This document shows, piece after piece, positions 2,162 to 35,586 of a DNA stretch of 64,000 bases. Origin of the DNA: Candidatus Oxydemutatoraceae bacterium (GTDB lineage Bacteria > Pseudomonadota > Gammaproteobacteria > Poriferisulfidales > Oxydemutatoraceae); NCBI GenBank assembly GCA_965220085.1, contig CBDCOZ010000003.1:1824001-1888000 (forward strand), given 5' to 3'. Each line of letters starts with the position of its first letter. The stretch's first letter is position 1. Position numbers and translations under genes: made by a program. Under the pieces are notes generated by a model that made no database searches, was not told where the DNA came from, and was given only the letters and a program-made list of their open reading frames with translations.

Positions 2162-5100
2162 TTATCGCAGGGGGCCTTCCAGGAAGAGGCGCAGACGCAA
2201 CCTCAGCACGCTGGCTGCCTCTTGCACAGTTATTGTCAGCGACAATTCGTTTGAGTCTATGCCGTCCTTGCTCGCCTGCGCCCTGACCGTGTGTTGCGTT
2301 GCCGCCGCGTAGTCCAATGCGCCCTCTGCGGTTATCACGCCGCTGTTACTCGTGATGGCAAACAAGCTGCCTGCGTCATCGGTCAGCATCCATTCCGCTC
2401 CGGTTATCACCTCGTCATTCTCGGTCGCTACCAGATTGATGCCCGGCACTACGGTGCCGGCGGGCGCATTCTCGGCCAGTTCTATCGCACCGCTGCCGCC
2501 GTTTGCTATCGTCAATGTCTCCAGCACATTCAATACATTGATTGTCAGTTCCAGCGTCGCTGTCATAAAACCGGCGGCGGCGGCGGTTACCGTTACGCTA
2601 TGGTTGCGCGCACCTATGTCTTCGTAGTCCAGCGTGTCGCTCGCTGCCAAAGTGATGACACCGCTGGTACTGCCTATCGCGAACAAGCTGCTCGGATCGG
2701 TCAGGCTCCAGGTCGCACTACTTACGGCAGTGCCATCGGTATCTTGTGCCGCCAATGTCACACCTGCTATCGCCGTGCCCGCCGTCGCATCCTCCGCTAT
2801 CGTCGCCGTGTTGGCAGCGCCTGTCGTATCGGTGTCCGCAATCTGCAACTGCGGCAGGGTCTCGTCAATATCTGTTACGGCGATGGTCAGGGTTAGTTGA
2901 TTCGAATCTATGCCGTCTTTGCTCGCCTGCGCCGTGACCGTGTGTTGCGTTGCCGCCGCGTAGTCCAATGCGCCCTCTGCGGTTATCACGCCGGTGTTGC
3001 TCGTGATGGCAAACAAGCTATCCGCGTCATCGGTCAGGCTCCATGTCAGGTCGGTTACCGGACGACCGCCTTCATCGCTCGCCGTCAGAGCAATGCCCGG
3101 CACCACGGTGCCGACGGGCGCATTCTCGGCCAGTTCTATCGCACCGCTGCCGCCGTTTGCTATCGTCAATGTCTCCAGCACATTCTCCACAGTTACCGTT
3201 ATTGAGAATGCGACCGAAGTCACTCCGTCTTTCGCGGCTTGCGCCATTAATGTGTGGCTCTCCCCGCCAGCCGCTTCAAAATTCAATGCGCCAGCCACCG
3301 TCACTTCGCCGCCGGTGCTAATCGCAAACAGGCCGCCCGCGTTATCAGGCAGACTCCATGTCAGGTCGGTTACCGGACGACCGCCTTCGTCGCTCACTGT
3401 CAGAGCAATGCCCGGCACCACGGTGCCGACGGGCGCATTCTCGGCCAGTTCTATCGCACCGCTGCCGCCGTTTGCTATCGTCAATGTCTCCAGCACATTC
3501 TCCACAGTTACCGTTATTGAGAATGCGACCGAAGTCACTCCGTCTTTCGCGGCTTGCGCCATTAATGTGTGGCTCTCCCCGCCAGCCGCTTCAAAATTCA
3601 ATGCGCCAGCCACCGTCACTTCGCCGCCGGTGCTAATCGCAAACAGGCCGCCAGCGTTATCAGGCAGACTCCATGTCAGGTCGGTTACCGGACGACCGCC
3701 TTCGTCGCTCACTGTCAGAGCAATGCCCGGCACCACGGTGCCGGCGGGCGCATTCTCGGCCAGTTCTATCGCACCGCTGCCGCCGTTTGCTATCGTCAAT
3801 GTCTCCAGCACATTCTCCACAGTTACCGTTATTGAGAATGCGACCGAAGTCACGCCGTCTTTCGTGGCTTGCGCCATTAATGTGTGGCTCTCCCCGCCAG
3901 CCGCTTCAAAATTCAATGCGCCAGCCACCGTCACTTCGCCGCCGGTGCTAATCGCAAACAGGCCGCCCGCGTTATCAGGCAGACTCCATGTCAGGTCGGT
4001 TACCGGACGACCGCCTTCGTCGCTCACTGTCAGAGCAATGCCCGGCACCACGGTGCCGGCGGGCGCATTCTCGGCCAGTTCTATCGCACCGCTGCCGCCG
4101 TTTGCTATCGTCAATGTCTCCAGCACATTCTCCACAGTTACCGTTATTGAGAATGCGACCGAAGTCACTCCGTCTTTCGCGGCTTGCGCCATTAATGTGT
4201 GGCTCTCCCCGCCAGCCGCTTCAAAATTCAATGCGCCAGCCACCGTCACTTCGCCGCCGGTGCTAATCGCAAACAGGCCGCCCGCGTTATCAGGCAGACT
4301 CCATGTCAGGTCGGTTACCGGACGACCGCCTTCGTCGCTCGCCGTCAGAGCAATGCCCGGCACCACGGTGCCGGCGGGCGCATTCTCGGCCAGTTCTATC
4401 GCACCGCTGCCGCCGTTTGCTATCGTCAATGTCTCCAGCACATTCTCCACAGTTACCGTTATTGAGAATGCGACCGAAGTCACTCCGTCTTTCGCGGCTT
4501 GCGCCATTAATGTGTGGCTCTCCCCGCCAGCCGCTTCAAAATTCAATGCGCCAGCCACCGTCACTTCGCCGCCAGTGCTAATCGCAAACAGGCCGCCAGC
4601 GTTATCAGGCAGACTCCATGTCAGGTCGGTTACCGGACGACCGCCTTCGTCGCTCACTGTCAGAGCAATGCCCGGCACCACGGTGCCGGCGGGCGCATTC
4701 TCGGCCAGTTCTATCGCACCGCTGCCGCCGTTTGCTATCGTCAATGTCTCCAGCACATTCTCCACAGTTACCGTTATTGAGAATGCGACCGAAGTCACTC
4801 CGTCTTTCGCGGCTTGCGCCATTAATGTGTGGCTCTCGCCGCCAACCGCTTCAAAATTCAATGCGCCAGCCACCGTCACTTCGCCGCCAGTGCTAATCGC
4901 AAACAGGCCGCCAGCGTTATCAGGCAGACTCCATGTCAGGTCGGTTACCGGACGACCGCCTTCGTCGCTCACTGTCAGAGCAATGCCCGGCACCACGGTG
5001 CCGACGGGCGCATTCTCGGCCAGTTCTATCGCACCGCTGCCGCCGTTTGCTATCGTCAATGTCTCCAGCACATTCTCCACAGTTATCGTTATTGAGAATG

Positions 5101-8100
5101 CGGCCGAAGTCACTCCGTCTTTCGCGGCTTGCGCCATTAATGTGTGACTCTCGCCGCCAACCGCTTCAAAATCCAAATCGCCGGCCACACTGATTACGCC
5201 TGTGTTAGTCGCAATCGCAAACAGGCCGCTTGCATCATCAGGCAGACTCCATGTCAGGTCGGTTACCGCATTGCTGCCTTCGTCACTCGCCGTCAGAGTG
5301 ACACCGCTCACTTCGGCGCCGATCGTTGCATTCTCCGCAATGGTATTGGCGTCGGCGTCGCTATCCGCTACCGTCAGCGTCTCCAGCACATTCGTTACGT
5401 TTATTGTCAGTGTCACTATGGCAGGCTGATAACCGTCGGCTTCGGCGGTTACCGTTACGCTATGGCTACGCGCGGTTTCGTAGTCCAGCGTGTTGCTCGC
5501 AACCAAAGTAATCTCGCCGTTGGCACTGTCTATTGCAAACAAGCCGCTCGGATCGGTCAGGCTCCAGACCGCTCCGCTCACAACATTGCTATCAGCGTCT
5601 TGTGCCGCCAGTGTCACATCCGCTATCGCAGCGTCTGCCGACGCATCCTCCGCTATCGTCGCAGTGTTGGCATCGCCTGTCGCATCGGTGTCCGCAATCT
5701 GCAACTGCGGCAGGCTCTCGTCAATATCCGTTACGGCGATGGTCAGAGATAGCTCATTGGAATCTATGCCGTCCTTTGTCGCTTGTACCATAACCGTGTG
5801 GTGCGTTGATGTCTCGTAATCCAGTTCGCCTGTCACTGTGATGACACCGCCGGTATCAATCCCGAACAAACCGGTCGGGGCGCTCGCCAAGCTCCAAATC
5901 AGCCCTTCTGTCAGCGGCCTGCCGCCTTCGTCGGTCACTGTCAGAGCAATGCCCGGCACCACGGTGCCGGCGGGCGCATTCTCAGCCAGTTCTATCGCAC
6001 CGCTGCCGCCGTTTGCTATCGTCAATGTCTCCAGCACATTCTCCACAGTTACCGTTATTGAGAATGCGACCGAAGTCACTCCGTCTTTCGCGGCTTGCGC
6101 CATTAATGTGTGGCTCTCCCCGCCAGCCGCTTCAAAATTCAATGCGCCAGCCACCGTGACCTCGCCGCCAGTGCTAATCGCAAACAGGCCGCCAGCGTTA
6201 TCAGGCAGACTCCATGTCAGGTCGGTTACCGGACGACCGCCTTCGTCGGTCACTGTCAGAGCAATGCCCGGCACCACGGTGCCGACGGGCGCATTCTCAG
6301 CCAGTTCTATCGCACCGCTGCCGCCGTTTGCTATCGTCAATGTCTCCAGCACATTCTCCACAGTTACCGTTATTGAGAATGCGACCGAAGTCACTCCGTC
6401 TTTCGCGGCTTGCGCCATTAATGTGTGGCTCTCCCCGCCAGCCGCTTCAAAATTCAATGCGCCAGCCACCGTCACTTCGCCGCCAGTGCTAATCGCAAAC
6501 AGGCCGCCAGCGTTATCAGGCAGACTCCATGTCAGGTCGGTTACCGGACGACCGCCTTCGTCGCTCACTGTCAGAGCAATGCCCGGCACCACGGTGCCGG
6601 CGGGCGCATTCTCCGCAATGGCATTGGCGCCAGTGTCGCTATCCGCTATCGTCAATGTCTCCAGCACATTCTCCACAGTTATCGTTATTGAGAATGCGAC
6701 CGAAGTCACTCCGTCTTTCGCGGCTTGCGCCATTAATGTGTGGCTCTCGCCGCCAGCCGCTTCAAAATCCAAATCGCCGGCCACACTGATTACGCCTGTG
6801 TCAGTCGCAATCGCAAACAGGCCGCTTGCATCATCAGGCAGACCCCATGTCAGGTCGGTTACCGCATTGCTGCCTTCGTCACTCGCCGTCAGAGTGATGC
6901 CGCTCACTTCAGTGCCGATCGTTGCATTCTCCGCAATGGCATTGTCGCCAGTATCGCTATCCGCTACCGTCAGTGTCTCCAGTACATTCAATACATTTAT
7001 TGTCAGTGCCAGTGTCGCAGACTGATAACCGCTGGCTTCGGCTGTTACCGTTACGCTATGGCTGCGCGCGGTTTCGTAGTCCAGTGTCTTGCCCGCAATC
7101 AATGTAATCTCTCCGTTAGCGCTGTCTATTGCAAATGAGCCGCTCGGATCGGTCAGGCTCCAAGTCACTCCGCTTACAACATTGCTATCAGCGTCTTGTG
7201 CCGCCAGCGTTACATCCGCTATCGCAGTGCCTCCCGTTGCCGACTCCGCTATCGTCGCTGTGTTGGCATCGCCCGCCGCATCGGTGTCCGCAATCTGCAA
7301 CTGCGGCAAGGTCTCGTCAATATCTGTTACGGCGATGGTCAGAGATAGCTCATTGGAATCTATGCCGTCCTTGCTCGCCTGCGCCCTGACCGTGTGTTGC
7401 GTTGCCGCCGCGTAGTCCAATGCGCCCTCTGCGGTTATCACGCCGGTGTTACTCGTGATGGCAAACAAGCTGCCTGCGTCATCGGTCAGGCTCCAGACCA
7501 CTCCGCTTACCATATTGCTACCTTCGTCGCTCACTGTCAGAGCAATGCCCGGCACCACGGTGCCGACGGGCGCATTCTCAGCCAGTTCTATCGCACCGCT
7601 GCCGCCGTTTGCTATCGTCAATGTCTCCAGCACATTCTCCACAGTTATCGTTATTGAGAATGCGACCGAAGTCACTCCGTCTTTCGCGGCTTGCGCCATT
7701 AATGTGTGGCTCTCCCCGCCAGCCGCTTCAAAATTCAATGCGCCAGCCACCGTCACTTCGCCGCCGGCGCTAATCGCAAACAGGCCGCCAGCGTTATCAG
7801 GCAGACTCCATGTCAGGTCGGTTACCGCGTTGTTGCCTTCGTCACTCGCCGTCAGAGCAATGCCCGGCACCACGGCGCCGGCGGTCGCATTCTCGGCAAG
7901 CTCTATCGCACCGCTGCCGCTGTTTGCTACTGTCAGCGTCTCCAATACATTCAATACATTTATTGTCAGGGTCAGCGTGGCAGACCGATAACTGCCGGCT
8001 TCGGCTGTTACCGTTACGCTATGGCTACGCGCACCGGTGTCTTCGTAGTCCAGCGTGTCGCTCGCAATCAAAGTGATTGCGCCACTGGTACTGTTTATTG

Positions 8101-11100
8101 TAAATAGGTCGGGGTCAGCCGGATCGCTCAGGCTCCAGGTCACTCCGCTTACAACATTGCCATCGGGGCCTTGTGCCGCCAGCATCACATCCGCTATCGC
8201 AGTGCCTCCCGTTGCCGACTCCGCTATCGTCGCTGTGTTGGCATCGCCCGTCGTATCGGTATCGACCACCTTCAGCGCCTCGACGCTAACCGTTGCGGAA
8301 CGGGTTATCTCGCCGCCGCGAATGACCGCCGCGACATGATAGGTTTGACCGACGCTCGCGGTGATGCTGTCGTCAATATAGCTTGTGTTCGTTGACGGCA
8401 TCCCGGCAGTGCCATTCGCCAGCGCCGCCCCGTCGCGGTAGATGTGGTACGTAATCGTCGGCGGCGGGTTCCATTCCGGCGGTATCGTCGGTGCGGTCCA
8501 ATCCACTGTCACCCGCCCGCTGCTCTCAAGCGCGACCAGGTCTTGCGGGCCTTCGCGCAACTGGTAGCCGAACTCTTGCCAACTCACCATGCCGTCGTTG
8601 TCAAAGTCAACCTTCAGCGCCGGGTATTGGCTCGCGCTGCCGAAGTCCCAGTAATCGCTGTTCCCGCCGTCGTTCCAACCGACGTAAATGCCGTCATAGC
8701 CGGTCGGTGTTTGCAACTCGGCGGACGTCTTGCCCTCAATTCCGGATGCAGAGCCAAGCAATATCTCACCAATCGCAACCGTCTTGCCCGATGTTTCGGT
8801 ATCCCAATATATCGCCGTCGTTACAAAGTTACTGCTGATACTCGTTCCGCCCAAACCGCCACCCTCCGTTGTGTCAGAGACAACCAATCCAGTGGCATAA
8901 GCGTACTTCAGTTGCAACTGCCCTATACTGCCTAACAGACCACCAGCCACACTCAAAGTATCCGGCGCACTGACAAAACCAGTCGCGTAGACATGCTCTA
9001 CTTGAGCACTGGACAAACGACCTTGAGCATTACCTATCAGGCCACCCATATTGTCGATGCCACTTACAATACCGCTTGCATAACTCAAACGCACTGTGCC
9101 ACCATCGTTAAGACCCAGCAGCGAACCAGCATTTGTGCCGCTTACCGACACCGTTGAGTACGATTGCTCTATCGTGCCTGCGCCCAACTCTCCGACCAAG
9201 CCACCGACACTGTCGCCATCGCCCAAGACCGAACCGGTCACGCCGATATTTGACACCGTACTGTTACGGCCAATAGAATCAAATAAACTCAGATTTCTTC
9301 CGGGGCCGCGGTTAATATAGAGGCTATATATGGTGTGACCGTTGCCGTTGAATGTTGCCATAAAGTTATCAGAGTCATCCCCTATCGGTATCCAGCCCGG
9401 GTCACTCGTCCAGCCGCTCTTGTTCTCGGCGGCATCGCTGTAGCTGGCATCGTCGTCAAAGTCCAAATCATTCAGCAACTCGTAGCCGAGGCAGACATCG
9501 GGGCAGCCCATGTTGGCTCTGGCATCAGGGAATGCCTTCGTATATGTCGATGTGCTCTCGCTAGGTACTCCGTTACCGTCAAGGTCAAACCGGATTGCAT
9601 CAAGTTGCTCTAAAGTTGTCACTTCAATCAAGCCATTTTGGTCTTGATCATAGACTATCGTAATCGGCACGGCAAATTGAACCGCAGTGCGAACCGCCTC
9701 GCCGCCGTTGACAACAGCGGCAACGCTGTAGCTGATGTCAGAACCTTCGGCCACTTCGGTATCATCGGCATAACTCAATGTCGTAATGCCAATGGCGGTA
9801 GTGGCAACACCGTTGCGATACACGTTATAAGTAATCTCCGGCGCGGGCGACCAGTGGCTTGTGTCGGGCGCCGTCCAACTCAATGTTCTGGATGCGGCGC
9901 TGCCGATTGTCGTCACCGTCGGGCCTTCGCGTAACTGATAACCGAATCTCTGCCAACTCGGATCCGTATTGGGGTCGCCATCAAAGTCAACCTTCAATGC
10001 CGGGTATTGATTGGCATCGCCGAAGTCCCAGTAGTCGGTGGGATTGCCATGAGAGTCATTCGCATTCCAGTCGGCGTAGATGCCGCTGTAGCCGGTCGGC
10101 GCTCGTAACTCGGCACTCGTCGCACCGATGATTCCGGCCGCGGTTGAGGCATCCGTCCCAATCGCCTGCGCTTGCCCGGATGTGTCCGTATCCCAATAAA
10201 CCGAAGTGAAGGCCACATCAAAGTCAAAATTATTAGGAGCCAGTGCCAAAGAACTGACCAGTCCGATAACACCGCCACTTACCGCTTCGGCGTGAACCAG
10301 AGCAGTGGAATAACTGTGCCTGATATCTATATTCCCCGCATAAGATAACAAGCCGCCCGATTCGACACCGCCATGAACATGCCCGGTCGCATAGACATGC
10401 TCTACGCTGTCTCCGCCATAGCTAAACGCAATCAAACCGCTTTGATATGCGGCATCGTATACGCTGCCGCTCGCATAACTCGTACGCACCGTGCTATCCA
10501 AGCTGAAACCGACCAGCGAACCGATATAAGCTCCCTCGCTTTGGGCGGGACGCAACGATACCGTTGAATAACTGTTCTCAATAACCGTATCAGAAACAGT
10601 GCCCGCTAAGCCACCGCCGCCCCAAAAGTTACTGTTCTCACTGGTGACTTCTCCGCTTATACCGATGTTACTAATCGTCGTATCACCGATGCCGCCAAAC
10701 AAGCCGAGGGAGGCGGTGACTCTGACATTCCTCTTGATGTAAAGGTTGTGGATTGTGTGACCGTTGCCGTTGAATACCCCCGTAAAACGATCCTTTATAT
10801 CATCTCTGGTATATGTGCTGATTGGGTACCAGCCGCTCCCGCCTTCGCCCTTGCTCCAACCTTTGTCAACAGCGCCCGATGCGTAGTCAGTCGCATCGTC
10901 AAAATCCAGATCGTTCATCAACTCGTAGCCGATACAAGTGTCAGGGCAGCCCATGTTGTCGGCGGCATCGGGGAATGCCGCTACATATGTCGGCGTACTC
11001 TCGCTAGGTATCCCGTTACCGTCCAAATCAAACCGGATTGCAGCAAGTTGCTCTAAAGTTGTCACTTCAATCAAGCCATTTTGGTCTTGATCATAGACTA

Positions 11101-14155: not shown

Positions 14156-14476
14156 GAAAAATGCCTCCTTGGCATAGCAACTTGAAGTTAATCAAGTTGT
14201 CTAAAATTATTTATTCTTACTAAATGTTTTTCTTAAGTTAGTTATGTATCCCTAAACAAAGAGGAAACATACTACCATATTATTAACATATTATGCACAC
14301 ATTATTAACATCTTACTAATAAGTTACTTATCTGCTTGTTTTTACTATGTTTTTTCCCTGATTAGCCATGTTCCAAGGCTAAATCCGGCCAGTAGCAAGG
14401 CAGTGCCTCATATTTCGGTCATATGCTATATTGAGGCGGTTTCAAACCACAATAAATACCTCAGATACGCTTGACC

Positions 14477-15244
14477 ATGACCGCAACACAGATGCTTGCC
14501 AGCGTGCGCAACGCACAAGAAGCTCAGACCGTGCTTGATGCAGCTGATATCGGCGTGCTTGATATGAAAGAGCCGGATGCGGGCGCCCTCGGCGCCTTAG
14601 CCGCCGAGGACATCACAGAGATCAATGCCATCGCCAACGGGCGGTGCGCGACCAGCGCCACCGTCGGGGATTTGCCGCCGCAACCGGAGTTGATGTTTGA
14701 TGCGGTACAAAAAACTATCGCGCTAAATGTTACTTATGTCAAAGTCGGATTGTTTGGCAGCGATTACTTGTCCGAATGCCTTGCCGCTTTGCGGCAACTG
14801 GCAACGCAGACAAAACTGATTGGCGTGTTGTTTGCCGGGCACTTCGAGCAGTTTGACGGGCCTTGCCGGCTGTTAAAAGCCGCCGGCTTCCACGGTGCGA
14901 TGATTGACACCGCGGATAAACAAGCGGGCAGCCTGCTTGAAATCATTGGCCGTTCGGTACTGTCTGACTTTGTGGCACAAGCGCGTCGGCTTGACCTGCT
15001 GTGCGGCCTCGCCGGTTCCTTGCGGGCCGACGACATAGATGCGTTGATGCCTTTGAGGCCCGATTATCTGGGGTTTAGAAGCGCTTTATGCGAGCAGGGC
15101 GCGCGGTCGGCGCCTGTCAGCGCCGCTGCCGTCGGCGAGATTGCGACGCGGATTGCCGCTTTCAAACAAACGCCGCAGTCGCTTCGTAGTCCGCAAAATC
15201 ATTCGCTGAGCGCAGGTCAAGCCATTCCTGCGGAGTCACAATAA
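14477..15244 (+). CDS. mfnB: (5-formylfuran-3-yl)methyl phosphate synthase-like protein (DUF556, Orf22)
   Basis: Motifs 'MLASVRN..EA', 'DMKEPDAGALGA', 'SATVGD', 'YVKVG', 'MIDTADK', 'GLAGSL' and 'PDYLGFR'; lies in a C1-cofactor cluster. Confidence 0.85.
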   Translation: MTATQMLASVRNAQEAQTVLDAADIGVLDMKEPDAGALGALAAEDITEINAIANGRCATSATVGDLPPQPELMFDAVQKTIALNVTYVKVGLFGSDYLSECLAALRQLATQTKLIGVLFAGHFEQFDGPCRLLKAAGFHGAMIDTADKQAGSLLEIIGRSVLSDFVAQARRLDLLCGLAGSLRADDIDALMPLRPDYLGFRSALCEQGARSAPVSAAAVGEIATRIAAFKQTPQSLRSPQNHSLSAGQAIPAESQ

Positions 15245-15770
15245 CAACGCGCGAACCAAACCGCGCGCACAACGCAGGGAAGCGCTCATCAACCAGATCA
15301 CGCGCGCAAGAAACCCGCCGCGCTGATACGGGCTTTATCAAAACAAGCCACTGTGCCCGCACACGGGCGGCGATGCACAAAGCGATAGAATCCGACGTGA
15401 GTTGCCAGTCCATCCGCATATCCGCTGCGTCGTCCGGCTGCCAGATACCCTGGTTTTCAGACGGGAGCCAGATAGCGCAGGTGTCGGTCGCAAGGCGCTC
15501 TGTGGTCGGCAGGTTTGATTTGGCGGACAAAAGGTAGCCATATTGGCGCATCGCAAGCAACGCCATATTGTGCGCGGTCGCATCGTCAAATCCCCAGCGC
15601 TTTTGCGCACTGCGTACCTGATCGGCGAACACCGCGCCGCCCGGGACGACCAATGCCTTACGCTCAGCAAACAGATGTGCAAGATGCGTCATCACGTGCG
15701 CAAGCGATGGCTGGCGATAGATACTGCCGCCAACTTTAATGACTGTGATTGCGTCATTGCCCGCCGCCAC
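15162..15770 (-). CDS. Amino-acid-kinase-family protein of H4MPT/methylofuran clusters (Orf21/MfnE-like)
   Basis: Motifs 'VIKVGGS', 'VVPGGAVFADQVR', 'AHNMALLAM.QYG' and 'W.LTSDSIA'. Confidence 0.8.
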   Translation of the reverse strand: MAAGNDAITVIKVGGSIYRQPSLAHVMTHLAHLFAERKALVVPGGAVFADQVRSAQKRWGFDDATAHNMALLAMRQYGYLLSAKSNLPTTERLATDTCAIWLPSENQGIWQPDDAADMRMDWQLTSDSIALCIAARVRAQWLVLIKPVSARRVSCARDLVDERFPALCARFGSRVVIVTPQEWLDLRSANDFADYEATAAFV

Positions 15771-15776
15771 TGCAAC

Positions 15777-17165
15777 TTATCCTTCGGCTTTGGCCAGTTG
15801 GCGGAAAAGCTTAACGATAGAAGACACTTTATCCAGCGTCTCCTGATACTCGGAGTCGGCTTCGGAGTCGGCAACGATACCGCCGCCGCCGAAGAATACG
15901 AACTTGCCATCACGGTAGACCGCCGTGCGGATGGCAATGTTCAGATCCATCTCGTTGCCACCGCCGATGTAACCGATTGCACCGCAATATACGCCGCGGC
16001 GGTCGGGTTCCAACTCTTCAATCACTTCCATTGCCCGCAGTTTCGGCGCGCCGGTGATGGAGCCGCCGGGGAAACACGCCTGCAAAAGGTCAATCGCGTC
16101 CTTATCCGCGGCGAGCTCGCCCTCAATCGTGCTGACCATGTGGTGGACATTGGCAAAACTTTCCACTTCAAACAGGCGGCTGGCTACAACCGAGCCAATC
16201 TTGCAGACCTTGCCGATGTCATTGCGCAAGAGATCCACAATCATCAGATTTTCAGCGCGGTCTTTGTCGCTTGTCCGCAAGGCTGTCTTCTCGCGCTCGT
16301 CCTCCGATGCATTCTCGCAACGCGGACGTGTGCCCTTGATCGGTCGGGTCTGTACTGTGCGGTCTTGCAGGTAGAGAAACCGCTCGGGTGACACACTCAG
16401 CACTTGCAATTCATCAAAGCCGAGGTAGGCGGAGAACGGTGCCGGATTTAACGTGCGTAATTCTTTGTACACTTCGCGCGGGTCGCACGCTACTTCCACA
16501 GAGAACTTCTGTGCCAGGTTGACCTGATAACAATCACCCTCCTTTATATAGTGCTTTATCTTGTTGAAACATCTGACGTATTCGTCCTTGTCTATATTTG
16601 ATACCAACTCGCCCAGCACGCGACACGGAGCGGGGGCGACAGCGGCGGGGGGCGGTGCCGACAGCATCTTGTGCACAGCATCAAACTCCTTTTGCCCGAA
16701 GTCATCATCCGCATATCCTGTCAGCAGTGTCTCGCTACGGCGATGATCGACAACGATTGCCCAGTTATAAATGCCAAGTAATATCTCCGGTATGTTTTCC
16801 TTATCGGATGTCAGTTCGGGCAGATGTTCTATGCGCCGCCCGAGGTCATAAGAGAAATAGCCGATCGCACCACCACTGAAAAGTGTATGCGGTTTATCTT
16901 TGATTTGCGGCAGGTGCGCGCGCACGACATCAAGCGGATTGTCTTTATATATCGCCCGCCTGCCATCGGCTTCGGTGACCACAGTCTCGCCGTCACGGCT
17001 GCGTATCAGCCGGCGGGGGTTAGCCGCCAGAATGTCACAACACTCCCCGGTGCTATCCAACCCGCCGTGGTCCAGAAAGACAATGTTGCGCTCCCCTGCC
17101 AGCCGGTCAAACAGACCGGTGCTGTCTCTTTCATACGGCAATGCTTGCGGTTGGAAAGCTTTCAT
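15777..17165 (-). CDS. pabB: Aminodeoxychorismate synthase component I
   Basis: Motifs 'GDCYQVNL', 'SPERFL', 'PIKGTRPR', 'KDRAENLMIVDLLRND' and 'FPGGSITGAPK'. ATG at 17165 preferred over the upstream start. Confidence 0.92.
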   Translation of the reverse strand: MKAFQPQALPYERDSTGLFDRLAGERNIVFLDHGGLDSTGECCDILAANPRRLIRSRDGETVVTEADGRRAIYKDNPLDVVRAHLPQIKDKPHTLFSGGAIGYFSYDLGRRIEHLPELTSDKENIPEILLGIYNWAIVVDHRRSETLLTGYADDDFGQKEFDAVHKMLSAPPPAAVAPAPCRVLGELVSNIDKDEYVRCFNKIKHYIKEGDCYQVNLAQKFSVEVACDPREVYKELRTLNPAPFSAYLGFDELQVLSVSPERFLYLQDRTVQTRPIKGTRPRCENASEDEREKTALRTSDKDRAENLMIVDLLRNDIGKVCKIGSVVASRLFEVESFANVHHMVSTIEGELAADKDAIDLLQACFPGGSITGAPKLRAMEVIEELEPDRRGVYCGAIGYIGGGNEMDLNIAIRTAVYRDGKFVFFGGGGIVADSEADSEYQETLDKVSSIVKLFRQLAKAEG

Positions 17166-18214
17166 TGCACACAACCTTGCGCGCGGGCGAGTTGCGCCAG
17201 GCTGAACGCCGTAGCACACTCTGCGAGTTGCGCACTATCCGTTCCTGTGTGCGCAGGCAGTAATTCATCAAAGCGGATGAACGGGCGCGCCAGTTTTTTT
17301 GCAATGGCCTTGACCACAAAGCTGCCGACGCCGGCACCGACCAGCGGTGCATCGCTGCCGATCATTGATGACGCGCTGACTTTCTCAAGGCCTTCAGCAA
17401 TCTTTTGTTGCTGGGCATCGGCAATCGCAGCCGCCGCCCGACGATACAGATCAAACTCCCCGGCATAGTCGTGCCCGAACATGCGAGCGAGCCGTCTGGC
17501 ACTTGCGTGTTCGTCTTTGTCGGCACCATCACAAGTTGGATACATATCCGCGTGCGGGGGCAGCTGCTTCAGCACCCGATAAACATCGGCCGCGGTGGCA
17601 AACATCTCAGCCATGACCGCTTGTTCCCGCCCATCCACATTGAAGCGGTCGCCGAGTGCCATCACCGGCGTCCTTACCACACCGGTATAAACGAGCTCAC
17701 CGGCGAGCAGGCGATCGGCATCGGTCAGTGCGGATGTTTTAACCCGCCCCGATTGAAACGGAATCAAATCGCAAGTCGTACTGCCGATATCAACCACGAC
17801 ACCCTCGGCAAGACGACCGGCGGCAAAGGATGCGGTCGCATACCAGTTCGCCGATGCGATATCCGGTGCATATTGCGCTACCACCGTGCGCTTAACGAAG
17901 CCTGCGGCACCGGCATAGATGGCAAAATCCTGTTGCAACCGTCTTGCCATTGCGGCGACAATCTCTGCGACACCGGTGTTGCGATCGACAAATGCATCGG
18001 TCAGCTCGCCGGTCATCGTCACGGCGTGCCGACTCGCGCTGAGATCGCGCGCATCCGCAATAGCACCCAATACGCCATCAAGCCGATCCATACCTTCCCA
18101 CAACGGGCATGCTTCCTGCGCTACCCACTCGAGCGCGCCATCGTGCGCCACACACACCGCTTTGATATGCGCGCCGCCGACATCCCAGCCGATATGTGTC
18201 GTCTTATCTGTCAT
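17162..18214 (-). CDS. Hydantoinase/oxoprolinase-family H4MPT-linked C1 pathway protein (Orf9/MfnF-like)
   Basis: Motifs 'IGWDVGGAHIK', 'AVTMTGEL.DAF', 'ASANW', 'DIGSTTCD' and 'GELVYTGVVRTP'. Confidence 0.85.
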   Translation of the reverse strand: MTDKTTHIGWDVGGAHIKAVCVAHDGALEWVAQEACPLWEGMDRLDGVLGAIADARDLSASRHAVTMTGELTDAFVDRNTGVAEIVAAMARRLQQDFAIYAGAAGFVKRTVVAQYAPDIASANWYATASFAAGRLAEGVVVDIGSTTCDLIPFQSGRVKTSALTDADRLLAGELVYTGVVRTPVMALGDRFNVDGREQAVMAEMFATAADVYRVLKQLPPHADMYPTCDGADKDEHASARRLARMFGHDYAGEFDLYRRAAAAIADAQQQKIAEGLEKVSASSMIGSDAPLVGAGVGSFVVKAIAKKLARPFIRFDELLPAHTGTDSAQLAECATAFSLAQLARAQGCVQ

Positions 18215-19187
18215 CGTCAAATACAAGCTCAACCACGCGCTTGCCCTCGGGGCATTTTAATTCTTTATCGCACACCGCATCAAAAATCAGTTCGCAGGGG
18301 TTGCTGCCGACCGATTGTTCAATGCCGGCCAGCGAGGTCGTCACGCGCGGGTTGATCTCCAGCACGAGCAAGCCGTCATCGGTTGCGATGAAATCAATGC
18401 CGACATACGCCATCAGGTCGGGCATGGCGCGGTGGATGTCGGCAGCCAGCGCCTTTGCCTGCGGCATCATATCCGACAATGCATTGACCTCGCAAGAACG
18501 CAACTCAAACCGCCCGGCGCTGTCGATGACGACGCGTTGACGATTGACCGACAGTACGCACATCGCCTCGCGTGCGTACACGACACTGATGCTGCCCGGC
18601 ACCCCTTTGGCCAGCGGCTGACATACGCTCTGCGCGGCGGCATCGTGCGCCGGCATCTCACCGGCCGGCACGAGAAATGTTTGCGTGCAGCCGACACCGT
18701 CATCGGGCTTGACGACCATATCGCTTGCGCACGGGAAGCGGTGCGCATCAAACGGCGATGTTTCAACGGCGGCGATGGCGTGATCCGACAAGTGCCGATA
18801 TGTCGCCAGCTTGCTCGCCGCTTGCTCAACGATTGTCGCAGGGGCATTCAGCAACAGGCATCCTTTGCTCTCGGCAAGACGGCATAATGTTGCGAGCGTA
18901 CCGGCGGTCTCCGGTGCGACCGGCCAAAACGCGTCGGCATCATCCAGCGCGTCAAAGAGAAATAAAGAGAAATCGTCGTTCTGCCCGATCCACACCACCT
19001 CGGTATCAAAATCGGGCGGCGGTAATCGCGCATCGCGCAAAGTCAACAACGATACGCCGTCAATACGGGCTAAGCCCTGCCCCATCGTCTCCAACATCAG
19101 CTCGCCTTCTCTGGCCAACGACGGCATCGGTTGCTGACAAAGCCCGCCGCTGGTCATATACTCAAATAAAATAATCTTTGTTGCCAT
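18204..19187 (-). CDS. ATP-grasp ligase (MfnD/Orf1-like)
   Basis: Motifs 'FEYMTSGG', 'EGELML', 'VAPET.G.L', 'VKPDDGVG' and 'YVGIDF...LEINPRVTTS'. Confidence 0.85.
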   Translation of the reverse strand: MATKIILFEYMTSGGLCQQPMPSLAREGELMLETMGQGLARIDGVSLLTLRDARLPPPDFDTEVVWIGQNDDFSLFLFDALDDADAFWPVAPETAGTLATLCRLAESKGCLLLNAPATIVEQAASKLATYRHLSDHAIAAVETSPFDAHRFPCASDMVVKPDDGVGCTQTFLVPAGEMPAHDAAAQSVCQPLAKGVPGSISVVYAREAMCVLSVNRQRVVIDSAGRFELRSCEVNALSDMMPQAKALAADIHRAMPDLMAYVGIDFIATDDGLLVLEINPRVTTSLAGIEQSVGSNPCELIFDAVCDKELKCPEGKRVVELVFDDDR

Positions 19188-19208
19188 GCTTTTTTTTAAG
19201 ACACCTCA

Positions 19209-30300: not shown

Positions 30301-32328
30301 CTATCGCAGCGGGCCTTCAAGGAAGATGCGCAACCGCAGACGCAGGTCCCGTTGGCGAATGCATTCCGGGGGTTCCGGGACTTCCGAGGGGTCCGCCAAG
30401 TCTACCGTGATGACACCTCTGTTGGCGCTGGTCGCTCTGGCGCTGCCATCGGCGGCGGCGGTAGTCACGCGAAATTCAAAACTGTTGTAGCCCATGGTCG
30501 GCACGGCGTTGGCATTGGGGGCGAAGCAGATGCCGCCTGCGCCTGCGAAGTCTCCTGTGGCGTCTAGGGGTACGGGGGTCCCCGAACCTGAGAGGCTTCG
30601 TGCCAAGCCGTCTTCTCCCAGCGGGACCCCAAATCCTTCGGTGCCGATCTCAGGATACACGGTCAATTCCACAAGGTTGTCGCCGTCCTCATCGCTAAAG
30701 GTGAAGTCGCACGGGCTGAAGCAGTGGGGGTTAGAGTTGTCTGCGGACGAAGGCACAAAAACTCTGTTGTTCAGAGCCATCGGCGCATCGTTGACATTGC
30801 GCACCCGGGCGACGGCGGAACACAGCGGCCCCTCTTCGGCGGGGGTTGCGTGCTCGTCCATAAAAGAGACGCAGACGCGGATGTACAACCCCACATGGGC
30901 CTGCAATGGAGTAAATGTGCGGCTGGTGGCGCCGGCTATGGCGGCGTAGGCATCGGCGGCCGGAGCGCCGCTGGCCGGGGCCGGGGCGGACTGCCACTGC
31001 CATTGCAGCGTACTCTGATTTATGACATTGGGTTCCACTATGCTGGCGGTGTTGGCAGTCAATTCGGTGTCTTCGGCGTGGGTGGGGTTCTGAGCGCTGG
31101 TGGCCGGGGTGATGCCGGACGCGCCGGTAGCTTTAATCTGTTGGTCGGTGAACAGATTGATGGTGAGGGTGTAGGCATCCACAGATCTTCTGTCGGAGCC
31201 CGTGCCGGTGTCCTCTATCCTATAGTCGAAGCTGTCGTAGTTATTCCGTGCCGAGGCGCCGGGATTCGGATAGTATGCCAGGGCGTTGAGTTCGGTCAGG
31301 GTCAGTTGGCTGCTGGCGGTCAGGGTCCGGGTCTCGCCCGCCACCACCAGAGTGCCCGCCGTCGGCAGACTGGCCAAGCGTATGCCCTTGAGGGTGTCGC
31401 CATCTTCGTCGGTGATGGGAAAGTCGTTTATGTCAAAGTCGTGCGGATTAGCGGCGTTGGCGGTGATGGGCACATCCACGGCGGTGTCGCGGCCCTCCGG
31501 CGCATCGCTGACATTGGCTATGATGTTGCCGTCGGTGCATCGCATCTCGCTGGCCGGGGTGGGATGCAGATCCCTGAAAGAGGCGCAGACGCGAATGTAT
31601 GTCCCCACATCTGCCTGCCGGGGAGTGAATCTGGCAGAGGTAGCGCCGCTGATGGCGGCGTAGGCATTGGCGGCCGGGGCGCCGCTGGCCGGGGCCGGGG
31701 CCGATTGCCATTGCCAGCGCAGGGTGCCGGTGTTTATGACATTGTTGTCGGCTATGGCGCCGATGGCGGCGGTGATGGTCACATCCTCGTTCCAGACTGT
31801 GGTGCCGGCGGCGGCGGACACTGCGGGCTTGCCGGTGGCGGCCTCCTGAGTGGGATTGAACAGATGGATGGTCATGGTGCCCCGCGCGATGTTGGCGGGA
31901 GTTCCTGCGGCGGTGACATAGAAGAAGAATGTGTCGTAGTTGCGCGTCTGCGCCTGGCCCGTGGGCGGATAGTAGCTGATGGTGGATATGGCATTTGCGG
32001 CCACAATACTTCTGGTTATTGCGGTGGTGCCGACGACGACGGTGTTGCCTACCCGCAGAGTGCCATTTGCAGGCGCCCGCAATCCCACCTCGGTGAGGGC
32101 ATCACCTTCCATGTCAGCAAAGCGGAAGTCGGATAGCTTGAAGTAGTACGGGGATGCGGCGGTGGCGTCTGTGGACACATCAACGCTGGATGGCTGCGCA
32201 GTGGGACTAGTATTTTGCGCTTGCGCCTGAGTGCAGACGGCAACCAGAGCGAGCAGGACGAGCGAGCAGAGGCTAAGCCGGGTTAGTGTTGTCCGCCAAT
32301 GCGGGGAAGAACGGAGTACTTGCATCAT
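30301..32328 (-). CDS. Secreted multi-Ig/cadherin-like protein with C-terminal LRLRLRIFLEGPLR
   Basis: Signal peptide (AQAQ). Two copies of the 'L.WQWQSAPAPASG...Y.RVC.SF.D.....E..C' module alternate with 'F.F.D.DGD.L' domains. Confidence 0.85.
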   Translation of the reverse strand: MMQVLRSSPHWRTTLTRLSLCSLVLLALVAVCTQAQAQNTSPTAQPSSVDVSTDATAASPYYFKLSDFRFADMEGDALTEVGLRAPANGTLRVGNTVVVGTTAITRSIVAANAISTISYYPPTGQAQTRNYDTFFFYVTAAGTPANIARGTMTIHLFNPTQEAATGKPAVSAAAGTTVWNEDVTITAAIGAIADNNVINTGTLRWQWQSAPAPASGAPAANAYAAISGATSARFTPRQADVGTYIRVCASFRDLHPTPASEMRCTDGNIIANVSDAPEGRDTAVDVPITANAANPHDFDINDFPITDEDGDTLKGIRLASLPTAGTLVVAGETRTLTASSQLTLTELNALAYYPNPGASARNNYDSFDYRIEDTGTGSDRRSVDAYTLTINLFTDQQIKATGASGITPATSAQNPTHAEDTELTANTASIVEPNVINQSTLQWQWQSAPAPASGAPAADAYAAIAGATSRTFTPLQAHVGLYIRVCVSFMDEHATPAEEGPLCSAVARVRNVNDAPMALNNRVFVPSSADNSNPHCFSPCDFTFSDEDGDNLVELTVYPEIGTEGFGVPLGEDGLARSLSGSGTPVPLDATGDFAGAGGICFAPNANAVPTMGYNSFEFRVTTAAADGSARATSANRGVITVDLADPSEVPEPPECIRQRDLRLRLRIFLEGPLR

Positions 32329-33200
32329 CGCAGGGGGCCCTCAAGAAAGATGCGCAGGAGCAGGTGCGTCGGCAGATTGTCCTCTGTCACCCGATGACTG
32401 TCTGTGCTGCACAGCGGCCCTGACGATGCGGGCGGGGAAAATTGATCCTTGAAAGAAACGCAGGCGCGGACGAACTTGCCCACATGGGCGGCAAGCGGGG
32501 CGAAGTTCGGGGAGATAACGCCCGTTGCAGTGGCGCCCGGTATGTTGCTATAGGCGCTGCCCATGGGAGTGCCGGTGCCACTGGCGGGTGCGGCGGCCTG
32601 TTGCCACTGCCAGATCAGAGTGCCGACATCAATGCTGTTGGGCTCCGTCACACCGGCGATGGAAGCGCTGATCCGGCCCGTGTCCATGGCGGTGATTGTG
32701 GGCGCGCCGGTGGCGGCCATCTGCGCGGATGCTCCCACCAGATTGATGGTCATGGTGGCCATGTGGATATCGTCACCTACGATATTGGCGAATCTGAAAC
32801 TGGTGAAGCCGGGGGTGGCGACAGAGATGGCATCATCCGGCAGGACATATTTGAAACGATCGTCCGACCCGGCAGCGGCTGAAAAATCACCTACGAAGTA
32901 GAACTGACCCTGCGGGTGTTGATTGCCAATGCGGGTTATTGCCACACCATTCCCCTTGCGAAGGGTTCCGCGATCGGGCAAACTTTCAAAGTTCAGGCTG
33001 CTTCTTGTGAAGCCGGGGAAGTCGGCCAATACGAAGGTATGGCTGCCGCTGCCGATGACAACATCAACACTGGTGTCCCGGATTTGAGCGTCGGCACGGG
33101 TTGCGCCCAATGCCAAGCACAGGGCCAGCATGGTCAGCGAGCAGAGGCTGCGCCGAGTCATTGCTGACCGCCGATGCGGGGAGCGGAGTATGTGCATCAT
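32325..33200 (-). CDS. Secreted two-domain Ig-like protein with C-terminal LLLRIFLEGPLR
   Basis: Signal peptide ...GATRADA-Q; paralog of its neighbours; ATGA overlaps on both sides. Confidence 0.85.
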   Translation of the reverse strand: MMHILRSPHRRSAMTRRSLCSLTMLALCLALGATRADAQIRDTSVDVVIGSGSHTFVLADFPGFTRSSLNFESLPDRGTLRKGNGVAITRIGNQHPQGQFYFVGDFSAAAGSDDRFKYVLPDDAISVATPGFTSFRFANIVGDDIHMATMTINLVGASAQMAATGAPTITAMDTGRISASIAGVTEPNSIDVGTLIWQWQQAAAPASGTGTPMGSAYSNIPGATATGVISPNFAPLAAHVGKFVRACVSFKDQFSPPASSGPLCSTDSHRVTEDNLPTHLLLRIFLEGPLR

Positions 33201-34063
33201 CGCAGGGGGCCCTCAAGAAAGAGGCGCAGGCGCAAGCGTATATCAGGCGGCGGCAACTGTGTCACCTGATGAGCGTCTGCGCTACACAGCGGCCCTTCCG
33301 ATGCGGGCATGGAAAACTGATCCTTGAAAGAAACGCAGGCGCGTACGTACCTGCTCAGTTGGGCGGCAGTCGGTGCGAAGAGGGAGGAAGAAGTGGCGCC
33401 CGGTATGTCAATGTAAGCGCTGGTTGCGGGAACACCGCTGGCGGGTGCGTCGGCTTGTTGCCACTGCCAGCTCAGGGTGCCGACATCAACGCCGTTGGGG
33501 TCCGTCACACCGGCAATGGAAGCGCTGATTCGGTGCGTGTCCGTGGCGGCGATTGTGGGTGCGCCAGTGGCGGCCGTCTGCGTGGATGCGCCCACCAGAT
33601 TGATGGTCATGATGGCCATTGTGGTAACCGCTACTTCATTCACAGACTCTCTAAAATTGAAGATGAAACTGGTATAGCCAGTGGCGATGGAAATGGCATC
33701 GGCGGGTGGCGTGTATCGGGGACCCTCGTCATCTACAAGATCACCAAAGAAGAAGACTTTGCCTTGTGGGTTAGTAGCGCCAAGCTCGTCGGTTTCTATA
33801 AGCCTGCCACGGTGGTCGGTGACGGTGCCACGGGGCAAACTTTCAAGGGACAGCGTAATTAACTCACGCAAGCCGGTGAAATCGGATGCCCGAAAGTGAT
33901 AAGTCTTGCCGATTTCAACATCAACACTGCTGTCTTGAGCCGGGGTTTGAGCGTCGGCCCGGGTTGCGCCCAATGTCAGGCACAGGACGAGCAGGGCCAG
34001 CGGGCAGAGGCTGCGCCGGGTCATTGCTGACCGCCGATGCGGAGAGCGAAGTATTTGCATCAT
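33197..34063 (-). CDS. Secreted two-domain Ig-like protein with C-terminal IRLRLRLFLEGPLR
   Basis: Same architecture and ATGA coupling as its neighbours. Confidence 0.85.
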   Translation of the reverse strand: MMQILRSPHRRSAMTRRSLCPLALLVLCLTLGATRADAQTPAQDSSVDVEIGKTYHFRASDFTGLRELITLSLESLPRGTVTDHRGRLIETDELGATNPQGKVFFFGDLVDDEGPRYTPPADAISIATGYTSFIFNFRESVNEVAVTTMAIMTINLVGASTQTAATGAPTIAATDTHRISASIAGVTDPNGVDVGTLSWQWQQADAPASGVPATSAYIDIPGATSSSLFAPTAAQLSRYVRACVSFKDQFSMPASEGPLCSADAHQVTQLPPPDIRLRLRLFLEGPLR

Positions 34064-35078
34064 CGCAGGGGGCCCTCAAGGAAGATGCGCAGGCGCAAGC
34101 GTATATCAGGCGGCAACTGTGTCACCCGACGGCCGTCGCTACACAGCGGCCCTTCCGATGCGGGCATGGAAAACTGATCCATAAAAGAAACACAGGCGCA
34201 CACATACCTGCCCAGTTGGGCGGCAGTCGGTGCGAAGAGGGAAGAAGTGGCATCCTCTATGTCAACAATGTAGGCGCTGGGTGCGGGAACACCGCTGGCG
34301 GGTGCGGCGGCCTGTTGCCACTGCCAGCTCAGGGTGCCGACATTAACGCCGTTGGGCTCCGTCACACCGGCGATGGAAGCGCTGATTTGGTGCGTGTCTG
34401 TGGCGGCGATTCTGGGCGCGCCGCTGGCGGCCGTCTGCGTGGATGCCCCCACCAGGTTGATGGTCATGGTGGCCATGGTGACATTGGTGATTATGAGATT
34501 GGAGAATCTGAAACTGGCGAAGCCAGCGGCGACAGAGATGGCATCATCCGGCGGGATATATTCGAAGCGATCGCGCCCGAGAGTGGATGCAAAATTATCT
34601 ACGAAGAATTGCTGACCCTGCGGGTTGCTATGGCCAAGCCGGCCGACAAAACTACGGCCATCCCCCCTGAGAAGGGTTCCACGATCGGGCAAACTTTCAA
34701 AACTCAGGGCGCCGCCGTCTGTGAAGCCGGGGAAGTCGGCCAATACAAAGGTATAACTGCCGCTACCGAGGACAATATCAACACTGGTGTCCCGGATTTG
34801 AGCGTCGGCACGGGTTGCGCCCAATGCCAAGCACAGGGCGAGCAGGCAATGCACCGCCGCCCGTGCGGGTGCGAATAGCGCCACAAGCCGCAACCACAGC
34901 GAAAGCCCGGGCGAAATCGGGTAGCGCAACTGCGCTGCGGCGTATGGCGAGTCTATATGGGATGGCGGCAGAAAGCGGGCGGCGAGGCCGTAGAGCCAAG
35001 CAACCGCAATCCCCCTATTTACATGGCGCGGGGGGGGGGGAGGGGGGTAGAGTTAAACATTTGTCGTTTCATATCCAT
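34060..35078 (-). CDS. Secreted two-domain Ig-like protein with C-terminal IRLRLRIFLEGPLR; probable true start lies upstream of a frameshifting poly-C tract (in-frame TTG at 34929 as assembled)
   Basis: The body is paralogous to the downstream genes. ATGs at 35078, 35072 and 35060 run into C6-T-C11 and stop unless the tract changes by +1 or -2. Confidence 0.7.
35030..35047 (+). repeat. Homopolymer G11-A-G6 (poly-C on the coding strand)
   Basis: Directly visible. Confidence 0.9.
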
Positions 35079-35131
35079 TGTTTCTATGACAGTTTGTATC
35101 TCATGAATGCGGTTGTACGGTTAGTGTTGCA

Positions 35132-35264
35132 CTATAAACAATCCACAAGCAATTTATGGAGCACGAACAACTAAGAAACCACAAGCAATTAAATATTGTT
35201 TGTGATCCATGAAAAAGCCACAAACAACTGAGTGTTGTTTGTGCCTCATTAAACGTTGTTTGTG
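35132..35264. promoter_or_regulatory. Array of CACAA(A/G)CAA(C/T) boxes in direct and inverted orientation
   Basis: Forward boxes at about 35144, 35162, 35180 and 35219; reverse boxes at 35195, 35234 and 35255. Two pairs form palindromes with 5-nt spacers. Confidence 0.6.
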
Positions 35265-35540
35265 TATATAACCGTATCACAAAGCGCAAGTCATCTACAA
35301 GTGTTTATATCTCCTGTTTCTAACAAATGTAATTATATAATGAGTGCCTGACACCCTTACGTGTCGCACTATACCACAGTGCGAGTCATTTGCAAGTGCC
35401 TGTTTTGTGCCGTAGCCAATGTGCTGATACCGCCTGTCGCGCGGATACAAGAAATCCATAATATTTCTGGCATTATGCGCCTGCCTTCACCCCCTTCGTG
35501 CGCCCATAATACCCCCCTTCTCCGCCGCAGGCCACTCGCA

Positions 35541-35586
35541 CCACCGTAGCGGGCCTTCAAGGAAAAGCCGTAGCCGCACAGGCAGG
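35541..35586 (-). pseudogene. 3'-end remnant of a further FLEGPLR-family gene
   Basis: Reads LPVRLRLFLEGPLR, then TGG where paralogs have a stop. The downstream ~60 nt resemble those after the 30301 gene. Confidence 0.7.

Follow-up and report, generated by a model that had tools for sequence, protein, structure and literature searches.

In a 64,000-nucleotide stretch of the genome of a Candidatus Oxydemutatoraceae bacterium (contig CBDCOZ010000003.1, positions 1,824,001 to 1,888,000; hereafter the window), exported proteins of very different length end in almost the same 12-14 residues, with the pattern [LIV]RLRLR[LIV]FLEGPLR directly before the stop codon. This C-terminal tag is real, strongly selected and portable, and it marks the exported adhesin-like repertoire of one bacterial family. 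We put the probability that it constitutes a new kind of sorting or anchoring signal acting after Sec export at roughly 55%. The tag is new to NCBIfam, Pfam, the sequences in the Protein Data Bank (PDB) and the literature searched.

The original prediction, made from the letters of the window, described five proteins and one remnant with a common C-terminal peptide, and this description holds. Four of the five proteins end in RLRLR[LI]FLEGPLR, and the protein of 291 residues ends in ...HLLLRIFLEGPLR. The giant adhesin among them (3997 residues) is matched in Pfam by Cadherin (E 1.2e-121 in 10 stretches), RGI_lyase (E 1.6e-23) and, weakly, GLUG, and for the four smaller proteins no Pfam family was matched. 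Apart from the tag the giant had been said to share no evident sequence with the small proteins, and indeed BLAST aligns its last 300 residues with them only over the last 14-54 residues. All five N-termini contain a hydrophobic segment followed by AQAQ or ADAQ and look like the Sec-type signal peptides claimed for them. A second giant starts at position 1873 and runs out of the window; its ending was proposed as a check, and in the source genome (G000, with contigs C1 to C3) it has 4110 residues (G000:C3:1813745-1826077) and carries the same tag, ending in ...ALKLRLRLFLEGPLR, with the C-terminus also given as ...PEPALKLRLRLFLEGPLR.

How widespread is this ending? The assembly of the source genome comprises 2,492,841 bp in three contigs, and a six-frame scan with the pattern FLEG[PAS][LF]R-stop found 215 open reading frames (ORFs) that end in this way, 186 of them with at least 150 residues. 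Measured from stop to stop, the eight largest have 15,193, 14,215, 13,255, 9,777, 6,024, 4,989, 4,110 and 4,009 residues, and all tagged ORFs together make up 19.8% of the genome. The reversed pattern gave no match, and the 215 endings are not a product of chance. The positions upstream of the selected pattern are near-invariant as well (R in 215/215, L in 213/215, R in 212/215, L in 205/215), and of the three residues after FLEG the L and R are found in all 215 copies and the P in 213. Conservation at the protein level, proposed earlier from the few copies in the window, is confirmed by free synonymous variation over the 215 ORFs: the Leu at position -6 is encoded by CTG (96), CTT (72), TTG (24) or CTC (16), the Glu by GAA (158) or GAG (57), and the stop codon is TAG (136), TAA (51) or TGA (28), and related genera encode the peptide by other codons. 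Since the residues are constant while synonymous and stop codons vary, selection acts on the peptide. As no conserved extension is found in frame beyond the stops, read-through was rejected, and the proteins truly end with this peptide. A search of the full set of 33,995 ORFs with 40 or more residues by a tag profile (E<=100) gave 398 matches, 210 C-terminal and 188 internal, of which just about six internal ones have E<0.01 (three N-terminal tags and decayed remnants), the rest being noise.

These counts also bear on the idea that the peptide has no sorting role and that the 3' end of the genes is kept as a recombination handle, as a coupling element in tandem arrays or as a termination context. 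We consider this very improbable, as third codon positions and stops vary where the residues do not, other genera keep the peptide with different codons, most tagged genes have no overlapping gene behind them and three proteins carry the tag at the N-terminus, even though tandem paralogs that overlap by ATGA are common among the tagged genes, tag-only remnants lie scattered between genes and intergenic repeats follow many stops. In the window the gene for the 675-residue protein illustrates such an overlap, its start overlapping the stop of the gene upstream (ATGA). The repeated intergenic elements are found at 1900-2160 of the window and downstream of many tagged genes, with sequences such as ...GTTCGCCCCCCGAAGGGGCGGGGAGAAA... 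and CGCGAGTGACCGGCGGCGGAG.... Furthermore, tandem units of about 120-170 bp, each ending in a fresh tag copy and a stop, follow full tagged genes at G000:C3:513720-514211, 908957-909461, 1303686-1303926 and other places; they are repeated 3' cassettes or decayed duplications. At G000:C2:92128-93068 a stop separates a secreted protein (RCC1-like repeats by eye) from a tag-only mini-ORF, the tag DNA of which (CGCCTATTCCTAGAAGGCCCCCTGCGATGA) is identical to that of a 506-residue protease-like protein at C1:34420, suggesting a recent transfer of the tag between genes.

The motif is also not confined to the few genes of one organism, an outcome that would have spoken against the original prediction. 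With a relaxed pattern (R-h-[RK..]-h-F-L-[EG/D]-G-x-h-x-stop, last residue free) applied to the 53 genomes of the order, the tag was found in 13 of the family's 19 genomes (Ca. Porisulfidus is a member of this family): there are 213 matches in the own genus, 5-12 in each of the five genomes of genus g3, 4-24 in four of the five genomes of g4 (none in G008, a congener of G003, G012, G016 and G018) and 2-21 in each of the three genomes of g5, with no match in the four genomes of g2 and the single genome of g6. None of the 34 genomes of the three other families of the order has a match to the relaxed pattern, and the reversed pattern gave one match in total over the 53 genomes. Outside the family, a sample of 401 genomes of the class yielded two single matches, one with an internal stop, versus four in controls, which is chance level. 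A stricter DNA pattern that requires the terminal Arg, and which undercounts tag-bearing relatives, was run against 185,579 species genomes and found two metagenome-assembled genomes titled Ca. Porisulfidus and three singles read as chance, in Hymenobacter (a 51-residue ORF), Maribacter and Thermoanaerobaculia (the latter two without a FLEGP..-stop frame). A JGI metagenome scan gave five stretches, of which just one had an in-frame stop (33-residue ORF, 23% GC), a chance match, and so added nothing. The tag is thus restricted to one gammaproteobacterial family, a member of which, Ca. Porisulfidus, serves as outgroup to SUP05/Thioglobaceae in two papers. At the level of abstracts, the literature searched on motif strings, phase variation in sponge symbionts and C-terminal sorting signals gave no description of the tag, and phmmer with the last 30 residues found no match among PDB sequences.

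Within the family the tag has the form R-h-[RK]-h-F-L-[EG]-G-x-h-x-stop, in which the Gly is always followed by three residues, and its variants are uniform within each genome and different between lineages: RIKVFLEGPLR in G011, LLRVKLFLEGPFR in three g3 genomes, RLKVFLGGMVR in g5, R[IL][RK][VI]FLEG[AS]L[QN] in G003 (a g4 genome with 8 tagged ORFs) and RIRVFLEGALE in G016 and G018. In one g2 and one g5 genome the motif is followed by tails of 3-30 residues.

Which proteins carry the tag? Signal-peptide-like N-termini were called by a home-made heuristic (hydrophobic segment plus AxA), which over-calls and is positive for 28% of untagged ORFs; they are found in 152 of 169 tagged versus 435 of 1,543 untagged ORFs (Fisher p = 4e-57), which contradicts an equal occurrence of the motif on cytoplasmic proteins. 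At 60% mutual coverage the 186 longer ORFs fall into 32 clusters, of which one is a mosaic group with 108 members and another a Cys-rich group with 30, besides many small ones, and the cargo types include giant cadherin-type adhesins, two-domain immunoglobulin (Ig)-like proteins, Cys-rich proteins and protease-like proteins. The number of clusters and the signal-peptide enrichment together support the earlier notion of a C-terminal, protein-level tag on unrelated exported proteins. A homolog search with the 288-residue window protein gave 45 matches, 42 in the source genome and three in metagenome fragments without a readable tag. The 506-residue protein mentioned above was called S8-like from catalytic-motif look-alikes read by eye; it has no Pfam family. 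In genus g5 (G009, G004; L021-L023) tagged giants of 3100-3600 residues have a trypsin-like domain near the N-terminus and form long tandem arrays with over 10 copies. In three genera a giant tagged adhesin adjoins cofactor-biosynthesis genes (AA_kinase, Hydantoinase_A-like, ATP-grasp_3), and since the neighbours are the same, this locus is ancestral and syntenic. A second expanded family of the source genome, with about 12 secreted proteins of 300-356 residues (G000:C3:189859-220073 and 330328-337645), is untagged and ends in ...NLNRYCSDSN; tblastn found no match to it in G003.

The original prediction would be weakened if the tag were an integral strand of the preceding domain. AlphaFold models were made of the 288-residue protein, with 26 paralogs, and of the last 230 residues of the 3997-residue giant. 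The former is modelled as two β-sandwiches with weak cadherin and pilin-type fold matches (TM-score about 0.3) and a tail, residues 223-249, with pLDDT below 50, the latter as two cadherin-like domains with pLDDT near 90 or above and with the last 20 residues at 58-63 and in coil. The tag itself is predicted as a strand, at low confidence, in one of the models and as coil in the other. An integral strand was therefore rejected for the two families folded, as the tag is left unpacked in both, and the models indicate an appended module that is structurally independent of the preceding domain. Across eleven giants the tag is separated from the last cadherin strand by 0-16 residues, a spacer that is often acidic and rich in Pro, and the tag stands where the first strand of another cadherin repeat would begin. 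The alternation of Leu and Arg may be read as one amphipathic β-strand, as originally proposed.

It could be imagined that such strands serve self-assembly, with tags pairing mutually or inserting as donor strands into neighbours to form mixed fibres or a surface mesh. The position of the tag in place of a further cadherin repeat would fit this idea, and the weak fold matches of the small proteins include the donor-strand pilins CsuE and CfaB (TM-score about 0.3, E 3e-4 to 1e-3). Yet the preceding domains belong to 32 unrelated clusters, so that a common acceptor groove is unlikely, and an all-Arg face would repel like strands; we give self-assembly very little credence.

The tag is also found at the other end of proteins. 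Three proteins of the source genome share a layout of signal peptide, about 20 residues resembling the end of an adhesin domain, tag, GGSSS linker and cargo, and over the first 60 residues the three are 83-84% identical to each other. PPC-domain repeats form the cargo in two of them (Pfam E 4.6e-20 and 8.2e-35), and in the third the cargo has His/Asp/Ser motifs and by eye a trypsin-type look, with no match to a Pfam family or PDB sequence; an untagged paralog of this protease-like protein is encoded at C3:1160953-1162380. As the tag is N-terminal in these three proteins, a reader would not depend strictly on a C-terminal position.

Both the N-terminal copies and the lineage variants have to be considered for an alternative in which the tag is a site of processing or ligation. 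In this scenario F-L-E-G would be recognised by a transpeptidase or protease of the periplasm or the cell surface, with a cut after the Gly that releases the three-residue tail, and the protein would be joined covalently to lipopolysaccharide (LPS), lipid or peptidoglycan in a way comparable to sortase or PorU; where the tag is N-terminal, such a cut would split off a propeptide and liberate the cargo. F-L-[EG]-G is the most conserved block across genera, the tails vary by lineage as a leaving group might (PLR, PFR, PLQ, ALQ, ALE, ALN, MVR, LLP), and the GGSSS linker directly follows the N-terminal copies. However, the tail is near-invariant in the source genome (215/215 for L and R, 213/215 for P), which is unexpected for a leaving group, known ligation signals hold the substrate at the membrane by a transmembrane (TM) helix that is absent here, and no candidate enzyme was found, the trypsin-like domain examined not co-occurring with the tag. 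We therefore regard ligation as unlikely.

What could read the tag? The original prediction envisaged an outer-membrane translocon or a strand-complementation partner, and in this respect it found no support, as no receptor, translocon, split acceptor domain or processing enzyme was found. Neither in the window nor in G015 or G003 is an accessory gene conserved beside the tagged genes. The genes that separate them in the window belong to amino-acid and cofactor biosynthesis, to restriction-modification and to the Fic type, and the neighbourhoods in G015 and G003 consist of housekeeping genes. The window intervals 22160-23948 and 26986-29710 encode a DNA methylase, a Fic-domain protein and an HSDR_N/RAMA protein, and Fic paralogs adjoin tagged genes on contig C1 too. 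Two candidate partners were rejected: the trypsin-like domain of the N-terminally tagged protein is present in the tag-free genomes G001 and G005 and was not found in the tag-bearing G002 and G003, and a FadL-like outer-membrane protein (OMP) was not found in the five g3 genomes and is present in three of the four g2 genomes, in which no tag was found. G000 and G003 have 117 candidate proteins of the outer membrane or periplasm in common. In the five family genomes tested a secretin is always present, Omp85 (PF01103) occurs as one protein per genome (BamA) and ShlB (PF03865), the TpsB-type transporter, is absent, and in Pfam the window proteins contain no Autotransporter, IAT_beta or RTX domain. 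Thus no known route is evident for the Sec-exported giant adhesins, which would be located at the cell surface.

The failure to find a partner gene could also mean that none is needed. A cationic amphipathic strand with five Leu on one face and three Arg on the other might be held non-covalently on or in the anionic LPS leaflet, or on sulfated host matrix, without a dedicated receptor. Alternation of basic and hydrophobic residues is known from LPS-binding sequences, the L/R pattern of the tag is conserved, the tag is found at either end of proteins and no co-occurring gene was found. Against this anchor speak the invariance of FLEGPLR in 215 copies and the genome-uniform variants, which point to a specific protein reader, and it leaves the crossing of the outer membrane unexplained; we find it doubtful, to about the same degree as ligation.

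Several observations weigh against a sorting or anchoring signal read by a protein. Besides the failure to find a receptor, translocon, acceptor domain or processing enzyme, or a gene conserved beside the tagged genes, the trypsin-like domain and the FadL-like OMP are uncorrelated with the tag. The N-terminal copies speak against a strictly C-terminal translocation signal, and the short tails in the two relatives imply that a free C-terminus at fixed distance is not absolute. The low pLDDT of the tail in the models fits a docking strand but also a functionless disordered segment. Finally, the signal-peptide call rests on a crude heuristic with its 28% of positives among untagged ORFs.

A further property of the tagged genes concerns their 5' ends. 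C or G runs of at least 10 nucleotides were counted genome-wide (11-28 nucleotides were found), and for 81 of 86 such tracts the position is the 5' end of a tagged ORF, directly after a conserved start, MKRQxFNT. In this assembly the conserved ATG is in frame with the ORF in just 20 of the 81 tract-bearing tagged genes. The window provides an example on the minus strand (35024-35072): behind the ATG at 35072 (MKRQMFNST) stands a poly-C tract with an interruption, 6+11 C (poly-G at 35030-35040 on the plus strand), and the frame of this ATG meets a stop after 17 codons and is one frame off the ORF 34060-34929 in this assembly. Poly-Pro-coding tracts are also present in the tagged genes of G003. 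Logan contigs break at a 27-C tract and carry no information on length heterogeneity. The arrangement suggests slipped-strand ON/OFF switching of the repertoire of about 190 genes.

Table 1. Positions of tagged genes and related loci (window coordinates unless a genome or contig is named; aa, amino acids)
Feature	Position	Strand	Remarks
Giant adhesin, 3997 aa	2162..14155	-	signal-peptide-like N-terminus, cadherin repeats, RGI-lyase-type β-sandwich domains
Tag of the 3997-aa adhesin	2165-2206	-	stop codon TAA
N-terminal part of the second giant	2..1873	-	ATG at 1873; end outside the window
675-aa tagged exported protein	30301..32328	-	tag 30304-30345; no Pfam family
291-aa tagged protein, tandem paralog	32325..33200	-	tag variant HLLLRIFLEGPLR
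288-aa tagged protein, tandem paralog	33197..34063	-	modelled as two Ig/cadherin-like β-sandwiches plus unpacked tail
Tagged paralog, 289 aa	34060..35072	-	ORF from TTG start 34060-34929; consensus ATG at 35072
Tag remnant VRLRLFLEGPLR	35541..35586	-	within an 85-codon open frame; Trp in place of the stop
Three N-terminally tagged proteins	G000:C1:23865-25292, C1:36355-38001, C3:1171407-1173515		loci L013, L014
Syntenic adhesin/cofactor loci	window 15162-19187 and 14155; G015 L028; G003 539629-548436		

How might a sorting signal of this kind work? In the mechanism proposed here h-R-h-R-h-R-h-F-L-E-G-P-L-R-COOH would be a lineage-specific sorting tag that acts after Sec export and hangs on a variable-length linker behind otherwise unrelated exported proteins. 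The alternating Leu/Arg stretch would form one exposed amphipathic β-strand with the FLEG turn as cap, and a component of the outer membrane would capture this strand by strand pairing and either pass the protein across the outer membrane or hold it on the cell surface. In a cargo repertoire of about 190 members single genes would be switched by poly-C slippage just after the start codon. Strand conformation, surface localisation, protein receptor and ON/OFF switching are the steps that we infer.

A bolder form of this proposal, clearly less probable than a sorting or anchoring role as such and put forward tentatively, is an unknown gammaproteobacterial pathway of outer-membrane export and display that would read a portable terminal β-strand of 12-14 residues on Sec-exported cargo of 200-15,000 residues, without a dedicated Omp85/TpsB, autotransporter, type I or type IX secretion signal. 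If this were true, the reader would be a new translocon or surface anchor, and the tag would be a minimal transferable display handle for about 190 phase-variable genes of a bacterium that lives with a host. Sortase, exosortase, rhombosortase and the type IX secretion system (T9SS) are machines that are each reached via a C-terminal sorting signal. Although far shorter than their signals and without a membrane helix, the tag marks genes that make up a fifth of a genome. The tagged proteins include adhesins of 10,000-15,000 residues with an outer-membrane route otherwise unexplained, and the tag offers a handle to find this route. Moreover, it delimits the surface repertoire of uncultured bacteria with relatives among the sponge-associated sulfur oxidisers, and the tag and the poly-C tracts in combination point to surface variation on a large scale in a symbiont, a topic usually of pathogens.

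How does the tag compare with known sorting and secretion signals? A match to a described sorting hidden Markov model was named beforehand as an observation that would speak against novelty, and neither NCBIfam (E<=1 on the five window proteins, no sorting-signal model matched) nor Pfam gave one. The exclusion of LPXTG, PEP-CTERM/GlyGly-CTERM, the BAM β-signal, RTX and the C-terminal domain (CTD) of T9SS cargo stands as far as the signal features of the proteins are concerned, and was tested in part as regards the machinery. PEP-CTERM, GlyGly-CTERM and LPXTG signals consist of a motif, a TM helix and a basic tail. They resemble the tag in being short, lineage-specific C-terminal motifs on many exported proteins with paralog-rich cargo, whereas the tagged chains stop three residues past FLEG without a hydrophobic helix; NCBIfam has no match for a sortase signal, and for PEP-CTERM/GlyGly-CTERM there is no TM segment after the motif and no model match, the genes of exosortase and rhombosortase not having been searched. 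A 366-residue Cys-rich, PPC-containing protein of the source genome (L014:4979-6079, G000:C3:1167979-1169079) does end in a poly-Gly run, a hydrophobic helix and an Arg-rich tail in the classical GlyGly-/PEP-CTERM-like way, and such signals would therefore have been recognisable. It is flanked by two vanadium haloperoxidase/PAP2-like proteins (weak Pfam match, motifs by eye), and from its sequence a second sorting system probably coexists in this genome.

The T9SS CTD of Bacteroidota is similar to the tag in that it is C-terminal on Sec-exported cargo, often giant adhesins, with many unrelated cargoes in a large family, and directs passage through the outer membrane and attachment to the surface. 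It has an Ig-like fold and is a folded domain of about 70-100 residues, in contrast to 12-14 residues behind a variable linker, and the host of the tag is a gammaproteobacterium related to Ca. Porisulfidus. No CTD was matched on the window proteins in NCBIfam or Pfam, the T9SS machinery (PorV, SprA, PorU) not having been searched. For type I secretion the N-termini are signal-peptide-like and the 3997-residue protein has no RTX repeat in Pfam, the genes of the type I system not having been searched, and for type V secretion Pfam matched no Autotransporter or IAT_beta domain on the window proteins and ShlB was not found in the five genomes.

The OMP β-signal read by BamA shares with the mechanism proposed for the tag a C-terminal amphipathic β-strand and strand pairing in the periplasm, and it has species-specific variants (PMC1634882). 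The tag differs from it in its non-aromatic end (R, or Q, E, N and P in relatives) and in cargo without a barrel, the models being soluble β-sandwiches, whereas OMP-like proteins of the source genome end in F. In donor-strand systems (chaperone-usher and type V pili) a terminal strand with alternating hydrophobic residues completes the Ig-like fold of another protein. Type V pili use C-terminal strands with Arg-specific processing. Here, unlike in such pili, neither an acceptor subunit nor an usher or chaperone was identified (no search aimed at the usher family was made), the cargo sequences do not resemble pilins and the fold matches to CsuE and CfaB are weak. Finally, like the Opa, Pmp and Tpr families the tagged genes have many paralogs, 5' homopolymer tracts and a conserved targeting part. 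This part is a tail of 14 residues instead of a barrel or autotransporter domain, and compared with these families the tagged one is unusually large, comprising some 190 genes and 20% of a genome of 2.5 Mb.

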